From: Thermoflexales bacterium
GTDB lineage: Bacteria; Chloroflexota; Anaerolineae; Fen-1058
Assembly (NCBI GenBank): GCA_041738395.1
Contig: JBGSPW010000064.1
Location: forward strand, 64,001 to 98,254
Reading direction: 5' to 3'
DNA length: 34,254 nt
The notes under the pieces were generated by a model. That model was not told the DNA's origin. It did not search any database and saw only the letters and a list, made by a program, of their open reading frames with translations. The translations under genes were made by a program, and so were the position numbers. Shown here piece after piece: positions 11,104 to 25,528 of this stretch. The first letter of the stretch is position 1, and each line of letters begins with the position of its first letter.

Positions 11104-11120
11104 AATCGCATAAGCGTCCA

Positions 11121-11207
11121 GAGCGGAGCATAGCGGAGTCGAAGGACGCGGATGTCTTGTATGAGCCGCATTCTTCGACTTCACTTCGTTCCGCTCGGAA
11201 CGCTTCA
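11121..11207 (+). repeat. Structured intergenic repeat family A, copy 1 (hairpin-forming, about 90 nt)
   Basis: gagcggagcatagcggagtcgaaggacgcgg ... ccgcattcttcgacttc ... ttccgctcggaacgcttc. The inner arms agtcgaagga/attcttcgact and the outer arms gagcggag/ttccgctc are complementary. Ends 3 nt before the start codon of the 558-aa gene. Confidence 0.55.
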
Positions 11208-11209
11208 AC

Positions 11210-12886
11210 TTGAATACGATGCCTACTAACGCACTGACTGACCTTAATCACCAGCTCGATGGCTGGCTGCGGCGCTATCGCCTACAGCGTGCGGTGCGCT
11301 GGTCGCTGCGTGGCGCGGCACTTGCCTTAGGGGTGGCGCTGGTCATCACACTGATTGCCGTGCTGCGCGGCCTGTTGCTGCAAGGCGAGTTCATCACGCT
11401 GGCGATCGGCTTGATGGTGATCGGGACGATCAGCGCCGCAGCCGCCGGGTATCTCTGGCGGCCCGATCGGCTGGTGGCGGCCCGTTGGTTCGATCGACAC
11501 TTTGGGCTGCGTGAGCGGGTTAGCACTGCCCTAGAACTCGCTCACGCCCTGTCTGCGGAGCAGGGGCGCGCTGGGCGAGCCGATCGATCTTCCGGCGACC
11601 TCGCGCAACGCCAACTGCAAGACGCCGCCGCGATGGCGCAGCGCGTGAACGCGCGCCAACAACTGCCGTTGAAGATCAAGCGCATCGATGCCGTGTTGAC
11701 CGTCGGGTTGCTGGTGGCTGTCATGTTAGTGGCGTGGCGTGGTGAGTCGTTCTTTCAGCTGGCCGCGCAGACGCGCGCCGTGCAGCAGACCATCGCCGCC
11801 GAGGCCGCCAAGGTCGAGGCACTGCGTCAGCAGATCGCCACCGATCCCAACTTGACCGAAGCCCAACGGCAGGAAATGTTGCAGGCGCTGCAAGAAACAC
11901 AACAACAATTGAAAGACGCGCAGTCGCTGGAGCAGGCCACGGCGGTGTTGACGCGCGGCGAGAAAAAGTTCGAATCGTTGACGAATGCGCAGGCCGAAGC
12001 TCAAACCGAAGGGCTGCGCCAGGCCGGTCAGCGATTGGCGCAAGATGAAGGTAGCCCGCTGCAAGGCTTTGGGCAAAATCTGGCCGAAGGTGATTTTCTG
12101 GCCGCCGCCGAAAATCTGCGCAGCCTCGATCTGAGTCAGATGTCGGCTTCCGAAGCGGCGGCATTGGCCGATCAATTGGAACAGGCTGCGGAGGCCCTGC
12201 AATCTAGCAATCCCGCATTGGCCCAGCAGCTGCGTGCTGCCGCAGCTGCGGCGCGCAACGGTGATGCGCAAAAAGCGCAGCAGGCTTTGGATCAGGCCGC
12301 GCAAGCGATGACACAGGCCGCGCAACAAACCGCGCGATCGAACGTGGCGCGCCAGGCAGCGGCACAGTTGGGCCAAGGTCGTCAGCGCATGATCGCCGCC
12401 GGTCGCAGCGCTCAGAGTCAAGCAGCGCAAGGAGACCAAGCGGGACAGGGCGACCCAACGCAGCCGGGTTCAAATCAAAGTGGATCATCAACGCAAGGCA
12501 ATCCAAATGGCGGAGCGGGATCAGGATCGGGCAAAGGCACGGGCAACAGCGGCGACGCGCAAGGCCCCGAGGCCGGTGGCAAACCGATCGATCAAAACAA
12601 CGGCCCCGGCGATGGCGGCGAAACGCCCTACGAACCGATCTATGCACCGCAGCTTTTGGGCGGTGGCGAAGGTGATACGGTGACACTGCCCGGCAGCGGC
12701 GATAATGGCGGAGATGTAACCGGACAGAGTGGCGTCAATCCCGGCAGCGACACGCCGAGTCAAGTGCCGTACTCGCAAGTGTTTGCTCAATATGCCAACG
12801 CGTATCGACAAGCGATCGACAACGGGCAAGTGCCGCCGCAGCTGAAAGATTTGATCCGGCAGTATTTCAGTTCGCTGGAACCGTGA
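11210..12886 (+). CDS. Membrane-anchored coiled-coil protein with Ala/Gln-rich and Gly/Ser/Asn-rich low-complexity regions
   Basis: 558 aa. Two N-terminal TM helices and a third near aa 160. Long AQ-rich predicted coiled coil. Gly-rich disordered tract. Conserved-looking C-terminal 40 aa ending QLKDLIRQYFSSLEP. No family assigned. Confidence 0.7.
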   Translation: MNTMPTNALTDLNHQLDGWLRRYRLQRAVRWSLRGAALALGVALVITLIAVLRGLLLQGEFITLAIGLMVIGTISAAAAGYLWRPDRLVAARWFDRHFGLRERVSTALELAHALSAEQGRAGRADRSSGDLAQRQLQDAAAMAQRVNARQQLPLKIKRIDAVLTVGLLVAVMLVAWRGESFFQLAAQTRAVQQTIAAEAAKVEALRQQIATDPNLTEAQRQEMLQALQETQQQLKDAQSLEQATAVLTRGEKKFESLTNAQAEAQTEGLRQAGQRLAQDEGSPLQGFGQNLAEGDFLAAAENLRSLDLSQMSASEAAALADQLEQAAEALQSSNPALAQQLRAAAAAARNGDAQKAQQALDQAAQAMTQAAQQTARSNVARQAAAQLGQGRQRMIAAGRSAQSQAAQGDQAGQGDPTQPGSNQSGSSTQGNPNGGAGSGSGKGTGNSGDAQGPEAGGKPIDQNNGPGDGGETPYEPIYAPQLLGGGEGDTVTLPGSGDNGGDVTGQSGVNPGSDTPSQVPYSQVFAQYANAYRQAIDNGQVPPQLKDLIRQYFSSLEP

Positions 12887-12909
12887 TGGATCATCATTGC
12901 AAGAAGCAT

Positions 12910-13067
12910 CCCGCCCAGCGCGCCGCCCAGCCTGCGGCTGGGGCACGGCGTGAGCGGAGCGCAGCGTAGTCGAAGGATGCGGCTTGCGCTAACAAGCGTT
13001 GTTCGTGTAACACGCATTCTTCGACTACAGCCCGAAAAAGCACGGACTTCCGCTCAGAATGCTTCGT
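12910..13067 (+). repeat. Structured intergenic repeat family A, copy 2 (full length, with a 5' cccagcc-N3-ggctggg hairpin)
   Basis: gtgagcggagcgcagcgtagtcgaaggatgcgg ... cgcattcttcgactac ... cttccgctcagaatgcttcg. A 16-bp inner stem with 1 mismatch. Ends about 38 nt before the moxR ATG. Confidence 0.55.
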
Positions 13068-13104
13068 CTATTTTTTACGCAATACGCATTACGAAAGGCC
13101 AGTC

Positions 13105-14082
13105 ATGACCCAACCTCTTACCGTCGATCAATTCCGCGAACTTGCCACGAACATGGAAACCGAGATTGGCCGCGTCATCGTGGGACAAAACGAGGTAGTG
13201 CGCGGCGTGTTGATCGGTATTCTGGCGGGTGGACACGTGCTGCTGGAAGGCGTGCCCGGTCTGGGCAAGACGATGTTGATCCGTACGCTGGCGCAAGTGT
13301 TGGATTTGAAATTCTCGCGCATTCAGTTCACGCCCGATCTGATGCCCGCCGACATTGTAGGCACCGAGATTTTGATCGATCAAGACGGGCAGCGCGCCTT
13401 TCGTTTTCAAGCCGGGCCGGTGTTTGCCAATCTCGTGCTGGCCGATGAGATCAATCGCGCCACGCCCAAGACGCAATCGGCATTGCTGGAAGCGATGCAG
13501 GAACATTCCGTGACGGTGGCGCAGCAGACGTATCAACTGGAAGAACCGTTCTTTGTCATGGCGACGCAGAATCCCTTGGAGATGGAAGGCACGTATCCCC
13601 TGCCCGAAGCGCAGCTCGATCGGTTCTTGTTCAAGATCAATGTCCCCTTCCCTTCGGCGACTGAACTGGTGGAGATTCTGGCGCGCACGACGGGCAAAGA
13701 TACACCTGCCGCGCAGACTGCCGTCAGTGGCGCCGACATCGTGCGGATGCGCGATCTGGCGCGGCAGACACCCATCGCTTCACATGTTAGCGAATACGTT
13801 GCACGCCTGATCGTCGCTACGCATCCCGATAACCCCGAGGCGACACCGCTGGTGAAGCAATACGTCCACTATGGATCATCGCCGCGTGGTGGGCAGGCCA
13901 TCATCCTCGGCGCGAAGATCGTCGCACTGCTGGCCGAGCGTTACAACGTCGCGTTTGAAGACATCGCCGTCGTCGCGCCGTCGGCCTTGCGTCATCGCTT
14001 GATCTTGAACTTCGAAGGCTTGGCGGAAGGCGCGAGCGCGGATCGGATTGTGGCGGAGTTATTGGAAAAGGTAGCAAAGTAG
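13105..14082 (+). CDS. MoxR-family AAA+ ATPase
   Basis: 325 aa. Walker A GVPGLGKT, Walker B LADEINRA, sensor motifs. Length and motifs are typical of MoxR/RavA-like ATPases. RBS AAAGG 6 nt upstream. Confidence 0.9.
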   Translation: MTQPLTVDQFRELATNMETEIGRVIVGQNEVVRGVLIGILAGGHVLLEGVPGLGKTMLIRTLAQVLDLKFSRIQFTPDLMPADIVGTEILIDQDGQRAFRFQAGPVFANLVLADEINRATPKTQSALLEAMQEHSVTVAQQTYQLEEPFFVMATQNPLEMEGTYPLPEAQLDRFLFKINVPFPSATELVEILARTTGKDTPAAQTAVSGADIVRMRDLARQTPIASHVSEYVARLIVATHPDNPEATPLVKQYVHYGSSPRGGQAIILGAKIVALLAERYNVAFEDIAVVAPSALRHRLILNFEGLAEGASADRIVAELLEKVAK

Positions 14083-14115
14083 AAGCGGCAGTGCGTCTAG
14101 CCACCAGAAGCTGAT

Positions 14116-15039
14116 ATGACCCATCACGGCGTCCAGCGAATTGCTGGTTCGTTATTGATAGCAACGGTTCTTGCAGGGTGCATTTCGCCTGTGATACCGA
14201 CCTCGACCTCTGTCCCTGTCACTGTTGAGCCAACATGGCAACCAACACCAGCGATGCTTCCCACCGAGGCCATTCCTATTAAGATTGTAGATGGTTCTCA
14301 AGGTTCAGTAATGTCACCCGTTCATGGACAGCTGCTTGTGCGGGCTTGCGAGAAAGAAGCATATGACAAATGTCCCAGCGCCTACGAATGCGATCTCGGA
14401 TATGTCGATCTAGCCAACGCACATTTTGTCCGCGTGCAACATATCAGTGAAGAAGACCCATTTTGCGAGAGCCGGAAGACAGATTTAATCTGGGCACCAG
14501 ATGGAACACAATTTGTTTATCGTAGAGGATGGATTGGCTCAATTGACTTTATCGTGTATGGCGCTGATGGTACTCAAAAACAACCTCTGGGGAGCTTTTA
14601 TCTAAGCGGTGCGTTCTGGACACCAGACGGGCGTTATCTCATTGTCAAAACGGGTGTAGGACCAAATTCACAACCCGCTGTTGAATACACCGTGTATGAT
14701 GCCCTTTCATGGAAGAAGGTTTGTGTAGTTGCCTCTGGTAATGGGATGATATTTGTTGTCGGAGGACAATGTATAGTGCCACTGAAAGACGGTCGAGCAG
14801 TGTTTCTTAGCGGAACCAAGGGTGTTGAGATGGCTATATGCAATGATCAGGCAAATTGTCCCGGCAGCAATAAGCTTCGACCGATTGGATCATTCTCTGA
14901 CCAAACCTTTGACTCGACCCGTTATCAAGCCCAAATCGAAAATTACTGGTTACGGGTATTTGACAGTGAAAGCGGTGTAGCACGAACATATGTAATACCT
15001 GGGTATCGCGTGACCAGCATCGCCTGGTCGCCAAAGTGA
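14116..15039 (+). CDS. Lipoprotein with PD40/TolB-like beta-propeller repeats; compositionally foreign (low GC)
   Basis: 307 aa. Lipobox LAGC. Repeated W.PDG motifs (WAPDGTQFVY, WTPDGRYLIV, IAWSPK). The nucleotide composition is visibly AT-richer (roughly 48% GC) than the flanking genes (about 62%). Confidence 0.7.
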   Translation: MTHHGVQRIAGSLLIATVLAGCISPVIPTSTSVPVTVEPTWQPTPAMLPTEAIPIKIVDGSQGSVMSPVHGQLLVRACEKEAYDKCPSAYECDLGYVDLANAHFVRVQHISEEDPFCESRKTDLIWAPDGTQFVYRRGWIGSIDFIVYGADGTQKQPLGSFYLSGAFWTPDGRYLIVKTGVGPNSQPAVEYTVYDALSWKKVCVVASGNGMIFVVGGQCIVPLKDGRAVFLSGTKGVEMAICNDQANCPGSNKLRPIGSFSDQTFDSTRYQAQIENYWLRVFDSESGVARTYVIPGYRVTSIAWSPK

Positions 15040-15090
15040 GCAAACTGAGCACGACAATACGCTTCACGTATCACGTTTTACGTACCAATC

Positions 15091-15984
15091 ATGCTCTTCG
15101 ACGAAACCTCCCTCCGCAAACTTCAGCAACTGACCCTCGTCACGTCGCGCGTGCGAGCGGGCGCGCTGCGCGGTGAGCGGCGTTCACTCAAACGCGGCGC
15201 GGGATTGGAGTTTGCCGACTTCCGCGATTACGTCCCCGGCGACGATCTGCGCCGTGTAGATTGGAACGTCTACGCGCGGCTCGATCGACCGTACATCAAA
15301 TTACGCGAAGAAGAAGAAGACCTGGCCGTTCACATTCTGATCGATGCGTCGCAATCGATGGATTGGGGTGAAGGCTCGCAGCACAAATTTGCATTCGCGT
15401 TGCACCTGGCGGCGGGAGTCGGCTCGATCGCGTTGGGCACGGGCGATCGCATTTCAGTTGTCATGCTGAGCAAGCTCAAGGTGGACGACAGTCCACCGAT
15501 CACGGAAGTCTCACTCCGTGGTCAACAGTACCTGCTGCACTTGCTCAAATTTCTTGAAGCGCAGCAAGCGGCAGGCGCCACTAATCTGGATGCCGCCATG
15601 CACCGTTACCTCATCAAGCCGCGCCGTCCCGGACTGGTAACTTTGATTTCGGATTTGCTCTCGCCCAACGGCTATCAATCGGCCCTGAAGATGTTGCAAC
15701 AACGCGGACACGAAGTGGCAATCGTGCACGTCCTGTCGCCGGACGAAGTCGATCCACCGTTGGCGGGCGATCTCAAACTGATCGATGTTGAAACGGGCCT
15801 TGCACAAGAAGTCAGTTTGGACAGCGGACTGCGCACTGCGTATCGCGAGCGGGTGGAGGCATGGCGCAACGAAGCACAGACGTTTTGCCGCGCGCGCGGT
15901 TTACGCTATCTCGCCGTCGAAACCGATCGGGCGTGGGATGAAGTGGTGTTGTACGACATGCGCAAAGCGGGCATGGTGAGATAA
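15091..15984 (+). CDS. DUF58 domain protein (partner of MoxR ATPases; BatII-like)
   Basis: 297 aa. LEFADFRDYVPGDDLRRVDWNVYAR is the hallmark DUF58 motif. Follows moxR as in Bat/MoxR operons. Confidence 0.85.
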   Translation: MLFDETSLRKLQQLTLVTSRVRAGALRGERRSLKRGAGLEFADFRDYVPGDDLRRVDWNVYARLDRPYIKLREEEEDLAVHILIDASQSMDWGEGSQHKFAFALHLAAGVGSIALGTGDRISVVMLSKLKVDDSPPITEVSLRGQQYLLHLLKFLEAQQAAGATNLDAAMHRYLIKPRRPGLVTLISDLLSPNGYQSALKMLQQRGHEVAIVHVLSPDEVDPPLAGDLKLIDVETGLAQEVSLDSGLRTAYRERVEAWRNEAQTFCRARGLRYLAVETDRAWDEVVLYDMRKAGMVR

Positions 15985-16012
15985 AGATCCGGCGAACGCA
16001 GATTAAAAGTTA

Positions 16013-16130
16013 CTGCTCAGCCGTCATGCCCGAGTGCTTCTGTCGGGCATCCAGATTCACTGCTGACATGCCCTCTGGATTCCCGCTAGAAGCATGCGGG
16101 AATGACAGCGCCGCGCGACGGCTGAGTAGA
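16013..16130. repeat. MITE-like element: 13-bp terminal inverted repeats (ctgctcagccgtc / gacggctgagtag) enclosing two internal hairpins
   Basis: The TIR match is 12/13. Internal hairpins atgcccga-N8-tcgggcat and attcccgc-N8-gcgggaat, whose loops are reverse complements of each other. Located between DUF58 and the BatA-like gene. Confidence 0.45.
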
Positions 16131-16232
16131 TACGATTGAAAGGATTAACGCTGATATTTTTGGTATCTGCTTTTATCCGCGTTATCTGCGCGCTTCGCGT
16201 CTGCGTCCAAAAACAAGTTCGACCACAATAAC

Positions 16233-18107
16233 ATGAACTTACTCGCACCTGCCGCGCTAGCCTTGAGTGCGCTGGCGATCCCCATCGTCATCTTCTACAT
16301 GTTGAAGCTGCGCCGCCGCGAAGTGACGGTCTCGTCCACGCTGCTGTGGCAGATGGTGCTGCGCGATCGACAGGCCAACGCGCCGTGGCAGCGCCTGCGC
16401 CGCAACCTCTTGCTGCTGCTGCAACTGTTGATCCTTGCCGCGTTGATCCTCGCCCTCGCCCGACCGGCGATCAGCGTCCCCACGCTCGCCGCGGGGTCAA
16501 GCGTGATTCTATTAGATGCGTCGGCGTCGATGAATGCCACCGATGTCGATCCCTCGCGCTTTGAAGCGGCCCGCCGCGCGGCTCAAGCATTGATCGATAC
16601 GCTGCCTTCTGCCGCACCCGTGACCATCATCGTGGCGGGTCAACAGCCGCAAGTGATCGCTTCGGCGGAGACCGATCGATCGACGTTGAAGCGCGCGCTC
16701 GACGAAGCGCGGCCCACCAACGGCGCGACCGACTGGTCAGCCGCATTTGCGTTAGCCGCCGGCGCGCTCGGTCGCCAGATCGATCAACCGACGACGGTGA
16801 TCATCTCCGATGGCGGCCTGCCGTCGAATCTGCCACCTTTGCCCGGCGAAGTACGCTACGTCCCGATCGGCCAATCAAGCGACAACGTGAGTGTCTCGGC
16901 CCTGTCATTGCGACCCACCAAGAACGGCGCAGAGTTATTCGCCGGCGTCGCCAATCACAGCGACACGGATCGATCGGTCATCCTCTCGCTCTACTCCGAC
17001 GGCGCGCTGCTGCAAGCACAGCCGATCGATCTGACAGCAGGCGAGACGCACAATGTGGTGCTGCCCGATCTACCGCGTGACGCGGCCGTCTATCAGGCGG
17101 CCCTCTCGCGGCCCGATCAATCCACGCAGCCCCTTGATGCACTCTCACTGGATGATGCTGCTTTCGCCGTCAATAATCCGGCGGGGGCGCGGCGTGTCTT
17201 GGTGATCTCACCGGGCAACGTCTTTCTGGAACAATTGCTGGCCGCCATGCCCGACCTGCAAGCATTTCGCGCCCTGCCCCAAAAAGACGGAACGGTGCAA
17301 ATGCCCACGGACGAATTCGATCTGTACATCTTCGATGGATTGGTGCCCGACGAACTGCCGTTCAAGCCGACGTTGTTCATCAATCCGCCGCAGAATTCGG
17401 TACTGCGCATCGATGGCGTCTTCAGCAACACGACCAACGCCCGCGTGATCGATTCGCCCGTGACGCGCGATGTGAATTGGAGCAACGTGCACGTGCGCAA
17501 GGCCAAACACATTACTCCACCGCAGTGGGCCAAGACGTTGATCGATTCAGAGGGCGGACCGTTGGTCGTCGCGGGCGACACCGGTGTGCGGCGCGTGGGC
17601 GCGATCACGTTCGATCTGCACGATTCTGATCTGCCGCTGCAAGTGACCTTTCCGATCTTGCTGGTCAACCTGATCAACTATCTCGCTCCGGGCCGATCGT
17701 TCAACGCACCTGATGGCGTGCGTCCCGGCGAGAGTTTGATCATCCGACCGGACGCAGCCGTGAGCACAGTCGCCATCGCGTCGCCGTCCAATCAGGTATA
17801 CACGGTGCGGCCCGCCGAAGGCACGGTCATCTTCAAAGACACCGGCGAGTTAGGCGCGTATGCCATCACGTCGATCAGCGGCGATCAGCAAACGGTCGAT
17901 TACTTCGCCGTGAACCTGTTCGAGCCGGCCGAGTCCAACCTCCGCCCGGTGGAAGCGATTCGGATCGGGCAAAGCCAGATTTCAGCGACACCGGCCACTG
18001 AGCAAGGCTGGCAGGAATGGTGGCCGTGGCTGGCGGCGCTGGCGCTGTTGATCTTGTTGATCGAGTGGTGGGTGTATCACGGGCGGCAGCGGGTAAAGAG
18101 GAATTGA
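16233..18107 (+). CDS. BatA-like protein: N-terminal double-TM anchor plus von Willebrand factor A domain, C-terminal TM
   Basis: 624 aa. The N-terminus LAPAALALSALAIPIVIFYMLKLRRREVTVSSTLLWQ matches the BatA/aerotolerance N-terminal double-TM domain. VWA MIDAS motif DASASM. C-terminal hydrophobic helix WWPWLAALALLILLIEWW. Confidence 0.85.
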   Translation: MNLLAPAALALSALAIPIVIFYMLKLRRREVTVSSTLLWQMVLRDRQANAPWQRLRRNLLLLLQLLILAALILALARPAISVPTLAAGSSVILLDASASMNATDVDPSRFEAARRAAQALIDTLPSAAPVTIIVAGQQPQVIASAETDRSTLKRALDEARPTNGATDWSAAFALAAGALGRQIDQPTTVIISDGGLPSNLPPLPGEVRYVPIGQSSDNVSVSALSLRPTKNGAELFAGVANHSDTDRSVILSLYSDGALLQAQPIDLTAGETHNVVLPDLPRDAAVYQAALSRPDQSTQPLDALSLDDAAFAVNNPAGARRVLVISPGNVFLEQLLAAMPDLQAFRALPQKDGTVQMPTDEFDLYIFDGLVPDELPFKPTLFINPPQNSVLRIDGVFSNTTNARVIDSPVTRDVNWSNVHVRKAKHITPPQWAKTLIDSEGGPLVVAGDTGVRRVGAITFDLHDSDLPLQVTFPILLVNLINYLAPGRSFNAPDGVRPGESLIIRPDAAVSTVAIASPSNQVYTVRPAEGTVIFKDTGELGAYAITSISGDQQTVDYFAVNLFEPAESNLRPVEAIRIGQSQISATPATEQGWQEWWPWLAALALLILLIEWWVYHGRQRVKRN

Positions 18108-18174
18108 TAATTGCTGAATGCTGATTGTTGATCGACCAACCGTCACGTATCACGCATTACGTTTTACGTTCATT

Positions 18175-21042
18175 ATGCATTTCACGACACCGCTTCTTCT
18201 ACTCTTACTCATCCTCCTGCCGATCATCATCCTGATCGGCAAGCCGGTGCGCGGATCGGCGCGGCGGCGCGAAATCCTCGCGTTGGGGCTGCGGATGATC
18301 ATCGTGGGGTGTGTGATCCTCGCGCTGGCTGGATTAGAGATCGCGCGCCCTTCCGATCAACTGGCGGTCGTGTTTCTGATCGACGCCTCCGATTCGATGT
18401 CGGATGAAGCGAAAGGGCTGGCGACGGATTACGTGCGGCAGGCTCTGCGCCACATGGGGCCGGACGATCAAGCGGCCATTGTCGTGTTCGGCGGTGAGGC
18501 GCTGGTGGAACGCGCCATGTCGTCTTCACGCGAACTCACTTCGCTCACCTCGGCGCCCAACACGGGACAGACCAATCTGGCCGATGCGATTCGCCTGGGA
18601 TTGGCGCTGTATCCGGCGGGCGCGGCGCGGCGCATGATCATCCTATCGGACGGCGCACAAACGATCGGGGATGCCGAGGAAGCCGCACGCTTTGCGGCCG
18701 ACAGCGGCGTGGAGATCAGCACGCTGCCCTTCGTGATGCAGCTCGGCTCGGAAGCCCTCATCACTTCCGTAGAAACGCCGGCGCGTTTGCGGCAAGGCGA
18801 ACGCTTCGATCTGCGTGTCAGCATCGACTCAACGCAAGCGATGCCCGCTCAGCTGCGCGTGCTGGTCAATGGACAAGTGGTGCACGAAGCCAGCTATCGC
18901 CTCAACCAGGGTCATCAAACGATCAGCATTCCATTGACGGCCACTGAACCGGGCTTCACGCGCTACATCGTGCAGATCGATCCACCGCAGGATCACGCGT
19001 ATCAAAACAATGAGCTGGCCGCCATCGCGCAAGTGTTGGGCGAGCCGAAGGTCTTGGTGGTGTCGCTGCCCGAGGGCACGCCCCTGCCCAACGGCGAGGC
19101 GCGCCCCGCTGAAGCCGATGCCCTGCTGCGCGCGCTGCAAGCCGCCAACTTCAACGTGGAAACGGCGCGGCCGGCGCAGCTGCCTTCGGATGTGGCGACG
19201 CTGGCTGATTACGCCTCGGTGGTGCTGGTCGATGTGCCTGCGCGCGAATTGTCGACGCGCCAGATGGAAGCGCTGCGCAGCTACGTGCGTGATCTAGGCG
19301 GCGGCCTCGTCACGATCGGTGGACCCACCAGCTATGGCGTGGGCGGCTACTACAAAACCCCGCTCGAAGATGCGCTGCCCGTCGAGATGCAGATCAAAGA
19401 CGAACAGCGCCGCCCGTCATTGGGTCTGGTGTTCATCATCGATCATTCCGGCAGCATGGGCGAGTTGAGCGGCGGCGCGACGAAATTGGAGCTGGCCAAG
19501 GAAGCGGCGGCTCGATCGGTGCAACTGTTGATGCCCAACGATCGCGTCGGCGTGATCGCGTTCGACGACGTCGCCAACTGGGTCGTGCCCATGACCGAGT
19601 TGTCCGATCCGTCTGGCGTGATCAACCAGATCGGCACGATTCGCATCGGCGGCGGCACTGATATTTATGGCGGCGTGCTGGCGATGTCGAAAGTGCTGCC
19701 CGACGATCCGGCCAAAGTAAAGCACGTGATTCTGCTCACCGATGGCGGTGCTGATCCCCACGGCATTCCTGAACTGGTGCGAAAACTGCACGACGAAAAC
19801 AACATCACCCTGACGACCGTGGGTGTGGGCCGCGATGCCGCGCCGTTCTTGCCCAGTCTCGCGGAAATCGGTGGTGGGCGTTATCACTTCGCCAAGGATC
19901 CCGGATCGATTCCCAGCATCTTCACCGAAGAAACGACACTCGCGACGCGTTCATACATCGAAGAAGGCGAGTTCTTTCCTAAGCAGGCCGCGCCCTCGCC
20001 GCTGTTGAACGGCATCACACAAGCGCCGCCGTTGTATGGCTATGTCGCAACATCGGCCAAAGACGCCGCGCAGACCATCCTCGTGTCGGCTAAAGATGAT
20101 CCGGTGTTGGCGGCGTGGCAGTATGGCCTGGGCAAAGCGGTGGCCTTCACGTCGGATGCCACGGGCCGTTGGGCGCGCGACTGGGTCGATTGGGATCAGT
20201 TCCCGTTGTTCTGGGGACAAGTGGTGCGTTACACCATCGGCGATCCGAACGCGTCCGCGTTGAACGTGAGTGTGGATCAGCAGGGCGATTCAGCCAAGGT
20301 GATCGTCGATGCGCGCGGCGCGAACGGCGACTATCTCAATGGTTATACCCTTAACGGCAACATCGTCAATCCCGATGGATCAGCTCAACCGATCGAGTTA
20401 CAGCAGACCGCCCCGGGTCGTTACGAAGGATCGTTCCAGCCGCGCGATCAGGGTGCGTACGTCATCGGCGTGGCAGGACAATCGCCCGATGGTGAAGTGT
20501 TGAACGAGAAAGCGGGTTGGGTGTTGTCGTACTCGCCCGAATATCGCAACCTCGAATCGAATCCTGATGCACTGTATCGCTTGACGCTGGCGGCGAACGG
20601 GCAGGTTGCGGCCAGCGATCCCGCCGAGGCCTTCGCGCATACGCCCGCAGGGCGCGCCGCGCCGCTCGCCACACGGCCGGCGTGGCCGTGGTTACTACTG
20701 ATCGCGGCGCTGCTGCTCCCCTGCGATGTCGGCGTGCGGCGCTTGGCCTTCGAGTGGCGTGACGTGCAAAAAGCGTGGCGGGCGATCGGGACGAAGTGGC
20801 AAGTGAAGCGCGCGGCGCAAGCAGCCCTGCCCGCCCGATCGGAACGCATGGCGACATTGTTCGATGCCAAGCAGCGCACCCGCGTCGAACGCGTGGAGCG
20901 CGCGGAACCGATCGAGCCGCCGCCAGCCGATCGGGAAGAGACAAAGCCGCCTGCGCCTCAACTCGATCGATCCACCACAAGCAAAGACCCCACCACAACC
21001 ACCTCGAGCTTGCTAGAAAAAAAGCGCGCCCGGCGAAAGTAG
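18175..21042 (+). CDS. Double VWA-domain membrane protein (BatB-like), with a charged K/E/R-rich C-terminal tail
   Basis: About 955 aa from ATG 18175 (MHFTTPLLLLLLILL). The ORF-track start at 18118 is less likely. Two VWA domains with MIDAS motifs DASDSM and DHSGSM. N-terminal and C-terminal TM helices. Terminal tail EKKRARRK. Confidence 0.8.
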   Translation: MHFTTPLLLLLLILLPIIILIGKPVRGSARRREILALGLRMIIVGCVILALAGLEIARPSDQLAVVFLIDASDSMSDEAKGLATDYVRQALRHMGPDDQAAIVVFGGEALVERAMSSSRELTSLTSAPNTGQTNLADAIRLGLALYPAGAARRMIILSDGAQTIGDAEEAARFAADSGVEISTLPFVMQLGSEALITSVETPARLRQGERFDLRVSIDSTQAMPAQLRVLVNGQVVHEASYRLNQGHQTISIPLTATEPGFTRYIVQIDPPQDHAYQNNELAAIAQVLGEPKVLVVSLPEGTPLPNGEARPAEADALLRALQAANFNVETARPAQLPSDVATLADYASVVLVDVPARELSTRQMEALRSYVRDLGGGLVTIGGPTSYGVGGYYKTPLEDALPVEMQIKDEQRRPSLGLVFIIDHSGSMGELSGGATKLELAKEAAARSVQLLMPNDRVGVIAFDDVANWVVPMTELSDPSGVINQIGTIRIGGGTDIYGGVLAMSKVLPDDPAKVKHVILLTDGGADPHGIPELVRKLHDENNITLTTVGVGRDAAPFLPSLAEIGGGRYHFAKDPGSIPSIFTEETTLATRSYIEEGEFFPKQAAPSPLLNGITQAPPLYGYVATSAKDAAQTILVSAKDDPVLAAWQYGLGKAVAFTSDATGRWARDWVDWDQFPLFWGQVVRYTIGDPNASALNVSVDQQGDSAKVIVDARGANGDYLNGYTLNGNIVNPDGSAQPIELQQTAPGRYEGSFQPRDQGAYVIGVAGQSPDGEVLNEKAGWVLSYSPEYRNLESNPDALYRLTLAANGQVAASDPAEAFAHTPAGRAAPLATRPAWPWLLLIAALLLPCDVGVRRLAFEWRDVQKAWRAIGTKWQVKRAAQAALPARSERMATLFDAKQRTRVERVERAEPIEPPPADREETKPPAPQLDRSTTSKDPTTTTSSLLEKKRARRK

Positions 21043-25455: not shown

Positions 25456-25528
25456 CTCATCGCATCCTTCGACTCCCGCTTCGCCTGTGCTCACGCCGTG
25501 TCCCAGCCTTTGGCTGGGCGGCGCGCTA
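25456..25528 (-). repeat. Structured intergenic repeat family A, copy 3 (5' half only, inverted on the plus strand)
   Basis: The reverse complement reads agcgcgccgcccagccaaaggctgggacacggcgtgagcacaggcgaagcgggagtcgaaggatgcg. This is nearly colinear with 12917-12990 of copy 2. Lies between tetR and the ABC ATPase start (25421), in the sense orientation of that gene. Confidence 0.5.

Follow-up and report, generated by a model that had tools for sequence, protein, structure and literature searches.

Tandem heptanucleotide repeats precede three start codons of a bat operon in a Thermoflexales bacterium (Chloroflexota)

Introduction

Heptanucleotide repeats are abundant in bacterial genomes, and their role is obscure. 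One start-proximal case has been published, the TAACTGA repeats of uncultivable giant sulfur bacteria. These heptamers are found in marine Beggiatoaceae and in some Cyanobacteria and Bacteroidetes as 2-6 tandem copies (MacGregor 2015, PMC4679880). There, 132 of 170 repeat sets point to a start codon that has no ribosome binding site, and ribosomal protein S1 or cold shock proteins (Csp) have been proposed as their readers (PMC4679880). CspB in turn prefers pyrimidine-rich heptanucleotides (PMC1904285). Here we analyze a stretch of 34,254 nucleotides from a Thermoflexales bacterium (GenBank assembly GCA_041738395.1, contig JBGSPW010000064.1, positions 64,001 to 98,254 of the forward strand), referred to as the window below, in which the moxR, DUF58 and double-VWA genes of a bat operon are each preceded by an array of 7-nt units (heptads). 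Our literature search on heptanucleotide repeats in Chloroflexi found no description of such elements.

Several other systems invite comparison. In the leader RNAs bound by HutP and TRAP, a trinucleotide recurs with short and constant spacing, and the period of the HutP site is 7 nt. Among simple-sequence repeats (SSRs), heptanucleotides have been reported as the most abundant long class in most prokaryotic genomes (Mrazek 2007, as cited in PMC4679880 and PMC4692102). GGGAATC heptamers in Xanthomonas and GGGGAYT heptamers in Nostoc have been described (Rehm 2015, PMC4692102), and heptanucleotide repeats of Calothrix are cited in the same work. In Xanthomonas, the same genes flank the repeats across related species, their length and sequence vary extensively, and inverted repeats can form (PMC4692102). 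In the 5'-untranslated regions (5'-UTRs) of Haemophilus influenzae hmw1A and hmw2A, an (ATCTTTC)n heptamer repeat together with its complementary arm acts via RNase III (PMC12721329).

Results

A sequence-only reading of the window had pointed out that the start-proximal regions of moxR, DUF58 and the double-VWA gene share short ACG-rich words. We found the three blocks at the positions described and the gene identities in agreement with Pfam. The 12-mer TCACGTATCACG occurs only at 15064 and 18143, and ACGCATTACG, common to the first and third regions, only at 13084 and 18152; TTTTACG is present in all three sites, with 6 occurrences on the plus strand of the window. What had been overlooked is the 7-nt spacing: ACG recurs every 7 nt, and this is the regularity that links the three blocks. 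The pattern ACGN4ACGN4ACG has 6 matches in the window (0.51 expected; 0 of 100 shuffles reach 6), all of them inside the three sites and none elsewhere. Five are on the plus strand, and the sixth comes from site 2 when it is read on the reverse strand. Equally spaced ACG triples on the plus strand number 5 at period 7 and 0 at any other period between 3 and 12, and the 79 nt of the three blocks contain 11 ACG trinucleotides, compared with 1.5 expected.

The 7-nt units run head to tail and in register, in 3, 4 and 4 copies, which places all three arrays among heptanucleotide SSRs, a class defined by at least 3 copies (Table I). All are on the sense strand, and their last heptad ends 11 nt (moxR), 8 nt (DUF58) and 6 nt (double-VWA) before the ATG. 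Including relatives whose DUF58 protein is at least 81% identical (the >=81% clade below), the heptad consensus is Y-D-T-Y-A-C-K (e.g. TTTTACG, CATTACG or TATCACG), in a register set by its AC positions. Within the 34-kb window, heptad arrays are restricted to the bat operon. Some units (CTTGTTAC) also match the universal 16S 1492R region in reverse complement, but over 8 nt such a match is meaningless given the many unit variants. That the three blocks are intergenic heptanucleotide SSRs is well supported.

The DUF58 protein assigns the source to a lineage of Anaerolineae (Chloroflexota) that has many relatives. We compared the window with four long syntenic loci, L001-L004 (91-81% DUF58 identity), and with 80 further metagenome loci. 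Arrays are present at the same three junctions in the relatives, with 1 to about 14 copies and with neither sequence nor length conserved. Conservation in orthologous loci had been proposed as a check on the shared blocks; the sequence blocks themselves are not conserved, but a heptad array is present at their positions. Upstream of moxR, the window has 3 copies, L001 7, L002 and L003 1 each, and L004 about 14; the units are CACCACG, CACTACG, TTTCACT and others in L001, and alternating CATTACG and TTTTACG followed by TTTCACT in L004. Upstream of the double-VWA gene, ACG heptads are found throughout the >=81% clade in about 1-10 copies (4 in the window and in L002, 1 in L003, 10 in L004). At the DUF58 junction, the units are YTTYACG in the window and L002, CATTACT in L001, CGTTACT/TGTTACT in L004 and L126-128, CGTCACT in L003, TCATCAC in L138, and, in a clade at 56-60% identity, CTTCATC, CTTTCTT and CACTTTC in up to about 10 copies that contain hardly any G. 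Among the 22 loci at 56% identity or more, some of which are near-duplicates, 16 have lag 7 as their strongest periodicity in the last 42 nt before DUF58 (match fraction of at least 0.5), and no locus at 45% identity or less reaches this match fraction. The arm next to the start has a G-poor sense strand in every case at the three junctions, and in most cases 4-12 nt separate its end from the ATG.

The period itself stands out in these genomes. In 215 kb of Anaerolineae bat-clade loci we counted 15 period-7 tandem arrays and at most 1 for every other period from 4 to 12, using an identical window and threshold for each period. In the >=81% clade, 9 of the 10 arrays found in 118 kb are at bat junctions, which by a crude definition make up only 22% of the intergenic sequence; owing to the common ancestry of the loci, the counts are not independent of each other. 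Conservation in a five-locus alignment is limited to the 14 nt beside the moxR start (ACGAAAGGYCA..ATG), with an invariant AAAGG core and the remainder of this leader almost so. The comparison shows rapid origin and turnover of the arrays, in which 7-nt units are gained or lost and point mutations occur, and therefore the same junctions differ in units and copy number among relatives, sometimes with an added reverse-complement arm.

The short-read contigs L206 and L207 end at their 3' side inside a 10-copy ACG array upstream of the VWA gene; arrays of this kind break assemblies and will be under-represented in metagenome-assembled genomes (MAGs). In a distant lineage (DUF58 42% identical), a CATTCTG array of 5 copies lies upstream of a BatA homolog (L162/L163, 11045-11082; L173, 3498-3535). 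It adds a second bat-type operon in which a junction carries heptads, and the sampled intervening relatives have none.

We then asked for similar arrays outside the bat operon by scanning one genome per species with ACGNNTYACGNNTYACGNNTYACG. The resulting collection comprises at least 120 loci from many phyla, and all figures given for it refer to the matches listed, 27 of which are from Chloroflexota. At 0 of 120 loci is a relative of the MoxR, DUF58, BatA or VWA protein encoded. Most matches consist of simple heptanucleotide repeats, among them (CACGCAT)n, (TTACGAA)n and (TTCACGG)n, with up to 16 copies, and many arrays are arranged as inverted pairs. The 27 Chloroflexota loci hold 59 heptad arrays with many different units in 183 kb. 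With the ACG arrays used for picking the loci excluded, period 7 accounts for 20 arrays in Chloroflexota, compared with at most 5 for any other period, and for 60 arrays in the other phyla, compared with at most 12. The same class of heptanucleotide SSR is common in Chloroflexota and several other phyla.

Arrays in this collection favor the sense strand ahead of start codons. An ATG of a long open reading frame (ORF) follows within 17 nt of 14 single-arm ACG arrays, versus 2 in the mirror control (P = 0.004), and when all arrays are oriented by their G-poor strand, an ATG-initiated long ORF follows within 30 nt in 41 cases versus 15 (P = 0.0007). Ten Chloroflexota genes behind arrays encode an F420 ligase, an XPB-type helicase, ArsA, TrmI, MscS, a molybdopterin oxidoreductase, an amine oxidase, YcaO, PIG-L and EPSP synthase. 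They have no functional theme in common, and most of their upstream regions lack a Shine-Dalgarno (SD) sequence, as judged by eye. Their start codons are supported, since in most of the ten the Pfam domain begins at residue 1-11. Contigs from Chloroflexia, Chloroflexaceae and Anaerolineae MAGs (L027, L036, L075, L124) contain 5-7 arrays with different units within 2.6-8 kb, a density reminiscent of cyanobacterial heptanucleotide repeats.

The sequence-only reading had taken the tandem TCACG/TTACG words for half-sites of an operator array bound by one transcription factor, or for internal promoters, that would co-regulate the three cistrons. Indeed, the three sites of this genome share words of 10-12 nt, and all of them precede genes that belong to a single operon. 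At orthologous junctions, however, these words are not conserved, the unit changes and between 1 and about 14 copies are present, and arrays elsewhere precede unrelated housekeeping genes. Two of the sites are 51-67-nt intercistronic spacers within the operon, no gene for a DNA-binding regulator was found in a Pfam scan of the operon and its neighbors, and ACG heptad arrays are located beside bat genes at 0 of 120 other loci among the matches listed. We consider an operator array highly improbable and reject the operator or regulon reading because of the unconserved blocks and because none of the 120 array loci listed has bat genes. Internal promoters found no backing either: there is no sigma-70-like match at any site, in a consensus scan that is a weak test for Chloroflexota. 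The consensus scan likewise revealed no terminator-like features at the sites, and a search of positions 12700-18400 against Rfam at E<=1 returned nothing except one chance small RNA match inside the BatA gene. Triplet sites of the HutP/TRAP type were considered and dismissed, as ACG is replaced by ACT or CAT in orthologs, no terminator is present and no Rfam family matches.

We investigated the start regions of 26 genes in the window by folding positions -40 to +20. Those led by heptads fold at -2.5, -4.1 and -6.6 kcal/mol, compared with -10.3 ± 2.6 kcal/mol for the other 23, and they rank 1, 2 and 5 of 26 when counted from the least structured (exact P = 0.0015). The best duplex with the anti-SD sequence has -3.5 kcal/mol for moxR (formed by AAAGG), +0.5 kcal/mol for DUF58 and +0.7 kcal/mol for the double-VWA gene, compared with a mean of -5.9 kcal/mol for the other genes. 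A canonical SD is thus missing from the heptad-led starts, apart from the weak AAAGG at moxR, as it is from most genes behind TAACTGA-type repeats. It had been claimed that most genes here lack an SD sequence; for the window as a whole this does not hold, with 16 of 26 genes forming an anti-SD duplex of -5 kcal/mol or better, but it is true of the four bat-operon genes. In a clade at ~72% identity, moxR has no heptads and carries a GGAG.

Several relatives combine the array with a complementary arm. In L001, the array upstream of moxR is preceded by its own reverse complement, and the resulting hairpin has -71.5 kcal/mol (z = -11); the DUF58 junction forms hairpins in L001 (z = -5.1), L004 (z = -5.0) and L002 (z = -3.4), with z = -2.4 in L003. 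These near-perfect hairpins at the same junctions, and the precedent of the H. influenzae hmw 5'-UTRs (PMC12721329), would suit an RNA element in which repeats and complementary arm form an RNase III target, or a stabilizer or attenuator that sets the relative expression of the cistrons. The three sites of the window, however, are not significantly structured (folding z = -0.45, -0.38 and +0.50). The G/T-rich heptads on the 5' side of array 3 do not pair significantly with it (z = -0.45), and the sites lack a terminator-like feature. Long single-arm arrays in relatives are almost structure-free as well: -6 kcal/mol over 131 nt in L131 and -14 kcal/mol over 146 nt in L004, with L139 also single-armed and unstructured. 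A hairpin element of this kind is quite unlikely as an explanation of our sites, and an RNase III mode may apply to the two-armed relatives rather than to the window.

Inverted arrangements could also originate from a mobile palindrome, with single arrays as the decayed arms of heptad hairpins dispersing through the genome in the manner of REPINs (hairpins built from repetitive extragenic palindromic, REP, sequences) or miniature inverted-repeat transposable elements (MITEs). Two Anaerolineae MAGs carry the same heptad hairpin with the same loop (CGTGATGCGTGAAACGTGAAACGTGAGRGCYTT + ACGCATCACGCATTACG...), twice in L049 (3527-3590 and 4628-4691) and once in L072 (212-270), so that some heptad hairpins are multi-copy and REPIN-like. 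Other REP-like hairpin families are present in the intergenic regions studied here, and one of them has a copy at 12966-13028, 45 nt upstream of site 1, with further copies at 11112-11205 and, partially, at 25461-25474 on the minus strand; its core, AGTCGAAGGAYGCG / CGCATTCTTCGACT, has 5 matches in the window against 0.02 expected. Finally, two independent gene insertions have occurred exactly between 5' and 3' heptad arms (see below). Against mobility, we saw no transposase, no REP-associated tyrosine transposase (RAYT) and no target-site duplication, and the window arrays, which are not palindromic and number three occurrences only, share words without common flanks. Their 7-nt periodicity and varying number of copies bear the signature of slippage rather than transposition. 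We thus regard decayed palindrome arms as a very unlikely source of the window arrays.

The genes and elements of the operon are summarized in Table I. The 307-aa, low-GC ORF between moxR and DUF58 is an insertion, as it is missing from this junction in L001-L004. L001 has another PD40-like ORF (13124-14035), inserted between BatA and the VWA gene and equipped with a sigma-70-like promoter, and both inserted ORFs sit between a G-rich 5' heptad arm and a G-poor 3' arm. We considered whether they could be transposases and dismissed this, given that faint PD40 matches were all that they produced. A 9-bp tandem repeat (CAAACTGAG, 2.2 copies, 15032-15051) overlaps the stop codon of the inserted ORF at 15039 and ends directly 5' of array 2.

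The junction between BatA and the double-VWA gene is built from two parts that are not complementary, G-rich heptads followed by G-poor heptads. In place of the ATTGCTG heptads of the window, relatives carry nnnnTGG heptads. The start of the double-VWA gene is the ATG at 18175, and not the in-frame ATG at 18118, because the upstream lengths in orthologs differ by non-multiples of 3; an N-terminal extension from 18118 is dismissed for this reason. ATGCAYTTC at this start is retained across orthologs while the upstream length varies, and the start is now fixed at 18175 for annotation. The spacer between DUF58 and BatA contains a second kind of hairpin, a 117-nt element at 16013-16129. It is long and imperfect, with 36-nt arms and outer 13-nt arms, and a sequence similar to it by eye, in unaligned sequences, is located upstream of the VWA gene in L001 (about 14480-14530). 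For the PAS/GAF gene, downstream of the operon genes listed, ATG 21181 is a more likely start than the ATG 21166 chosen by the ORF finder, as AAGGAG is located 4 nt upstream and orthologs start with ATGCCGGAC.

Table I. Heptad arrays, genes and neighboring elements of the bat operon; positions are those of the window
Feature	Position	Strand	Description
Heptad array 1, upstream of moxR	13073-13093	+	TTTTACG CAATACG CATTACG; 3 copies
moxR leader, between array 1 and ATG	13091-13104	+	ACGAAAGGCCAGTC; holds weak SD-like AAAGG (13094-13098)
moxR, AAA_3 ATPase	13105-14082	+	Pfam AAA_3, E = 7.6e-66; start conserved in orthologs
Inserted lipoprotein-like ORF, 307 aa	14116-15039	+	GC 0.485; faint PD40 match only; splits the moxR-DUF58 junction 5' of array 2
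Heptad array 2, upstream of DUF58	15055-15082	+	CAATACG CTTCACG TATCACG TTTTACG; 4 copies
DUF58 gene	15091-15984	+	Pfam DUF58, E = 2.7e-40
BatA-VWA gene	16233-18107	+	Pfam; leader G-poor, SD-less and without heptads (internal comparison)
G/T-rich heptads	18110-18132	+	ATTGCTG, 3.3 copies; directly after BatA stop; Tandem Repeats Finder (TRF) period 7
Heptad array 3, upstream of double-VWA gene	18141-18168	+	CGTCACG TATCACG CATTACG TTTTACG; 4 copies
Double-VWA/GATase1_like gene	18175-21042	+	Pfam, 2xVWA and GATase1_like

Discussion

What persists at the three junctions is period 7, a G-poor sense strand, adjacency to the start codon, and a weak or absent SD, and these features would fit an open leader acting at the RNA level. 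We infer that the arrays are intergenic heptanucleotide SSRs that serve as structure-free, SD-less translation leaders and not as operator sites, a functional assignment to which we give about an even chance. The arrays would be transcribed as an untranslated leader immediately 5' of the start codon, and their G-poor, pyrimidine-rich sense strand would provide a translation initiation region free of structure and of an SD sequence. Such a leader could act as a standby platform for the ribosome. Alternatively, it may bind single-strand-specific proteins of the oligonucleotide/oligosaccharide-binding (OB) fold, such as S1 or Csp, whose footprint would be about one heptad. The preference of CspB for pyrimidine-rich heptanucleotides could explain the 7-nt register. 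The number of repeats and the presence or absence of a complementary arm would then tune the output of each cistron. A translation or start-site element had already been suggested in the sequence-only reading; this part of it agrees with the sense-strand orientation, the proximity to the ATG, the weak or missing SD and the unstructured starts, but is unproven.

A number of observations weigh against a role as translation leader. The low structure of the start regions follows from G-poor composition alone, and the periodicity itself may be functionless. The adjacent BatA leader is also G-poor and SD-less, yet has no heptads. In close relatives the same junctions can be folded into very stable hairpins, which do not fit a simple need for an open leader. 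Start-proximal sense arrays make up only about a quarter of the wider sample, among the matches listed. Finally, four contigs from different samples with an identical DUF58 protein have identical arrays, so that no rapid tuning within populations was observed, in a sample that is small and possibly represents one population.

Neutral slippage would make the arrays selfish or neutral heptanucleotide microsatellites that have no function and persist where they are harmless, with their biases in strand and position only reflecting purifying selection against G-rich, SD-like or structured sequence beside starts. It is a serious rival, which we consider possible but rather doubtful. It would account for the open, SD-less BatA leader without heptads, for the four same-species contigs without differences in copy number, and for the complete turnover of unit and copy number between relatives next to a conserved 14-nt leader. 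Across many phyla, arrays in either orientation are found beside genes that have nothing in common, most of them elsewhere than beside a start, and polymerase slippage is the cause to which the abundance of long heptanucleotide SSRs has been attributed (Mrazek 2007, as cited in PMC4679880 and PMC4692102). On the other hand, an array has been kept at the moxR-DUF58 junction down to 56% protein identity despite replacement of its unit, the sense-strand bias is significant, and in the >=81% clade the arrays concentrate in the bat operon well beyond its share of intergenic sequence (9 of 10 versus 22%). The presence of arrays also coincides with loss of the SD, with the GGAG of the heptad-less moxR genes at ~72% identity as the counterpart.

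The translation-leader reading can be extended to a more specific device. Each 7-nt unit would be the footprint of one OB-fold domain of Csp or S1, and such proteins, lined up in phase along the leader, would hold it open and bring it to the 30S subunit for SD-independent initiation. The unit would co-evolve with the reader of each lineage, and copy number and the optional masking arm would set the stoichiometry of the MoxR, DUF58 and VWA proteins. We regard this extension as unlikely; if true, it would provide one mechanism for heptanucleotide repeats in Chloroflexota, Beggiatoaceae, cyanobacteria and other phyla.

Irrespective of mechanism, the locus brings a TAACTGA-like arrangement to Chloroflexota. 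It offers a natural allelic series at three starts of one conserved operon, with 1 to about 14 copies, single arms or perfect hairpins, and several unit types, and thus represents convenient material for testing whether repeats replace the SD. It also carries a warning for annotation, in that words shared between such arrays should not be taken for binding sites of a regulator.

We compared the arrays with the systems introduced above. In contrast to HutP and TRAP sites, the triplet ACG of the window is not conserved in orthologs, occurs in variable numbers, and is not followed by a terminator or antiterminator. The hmw leaders combine a pyrimidine-rich heptamer SSR, located between promoter and start codon, with copy number linked to expression and a hairpin with a purine- or G-rich arm. 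They depend on 11 or more repeats and on RNase III processing of the hairpin, their expression is inversely related to copy number, and they vary within populations; the window arrays, in contrast, have 3-4 copies, are unstructured, and are invariant among four same-species contigs, and a long hairpin is found only in L001, L002 and L004. With the SSRs of Xanthomonas and Nostoc, our arrays share the dominance of the 7-nt class, the intergenic location, the variability between the same genes and the inverted arrangements. Those units are G-rich and quadruplex-capable, however, whereas the window arrays are G-poor on the sense strand and abut start codons. The closest precedent is found in the TAACTGA repeats of Beggiatoaceae, which are likewise tandem and forward, end a few nt before starts that are mostly SD-less, and precede functionally unrelated genes, as arrays in other Chloroflexota do. 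Their unit is fixed, whereas ours is YDTYACK, drifts between relatives and belongs to a lineage of Chloroflexota, and relatives of the window often have a complementary hairpin arm, whereas a single inverted repeat is all that is reported for BOGUAY (PMC4679880). As the unit is YDTYACK and not TAACTGA, the arrays are of the same kind but not members of the TAACTGA family. The locus is a new case, from Chloroflexota, of the known and poorly understood intergenic heptanucleotide repeats that are positioned next to start codons.

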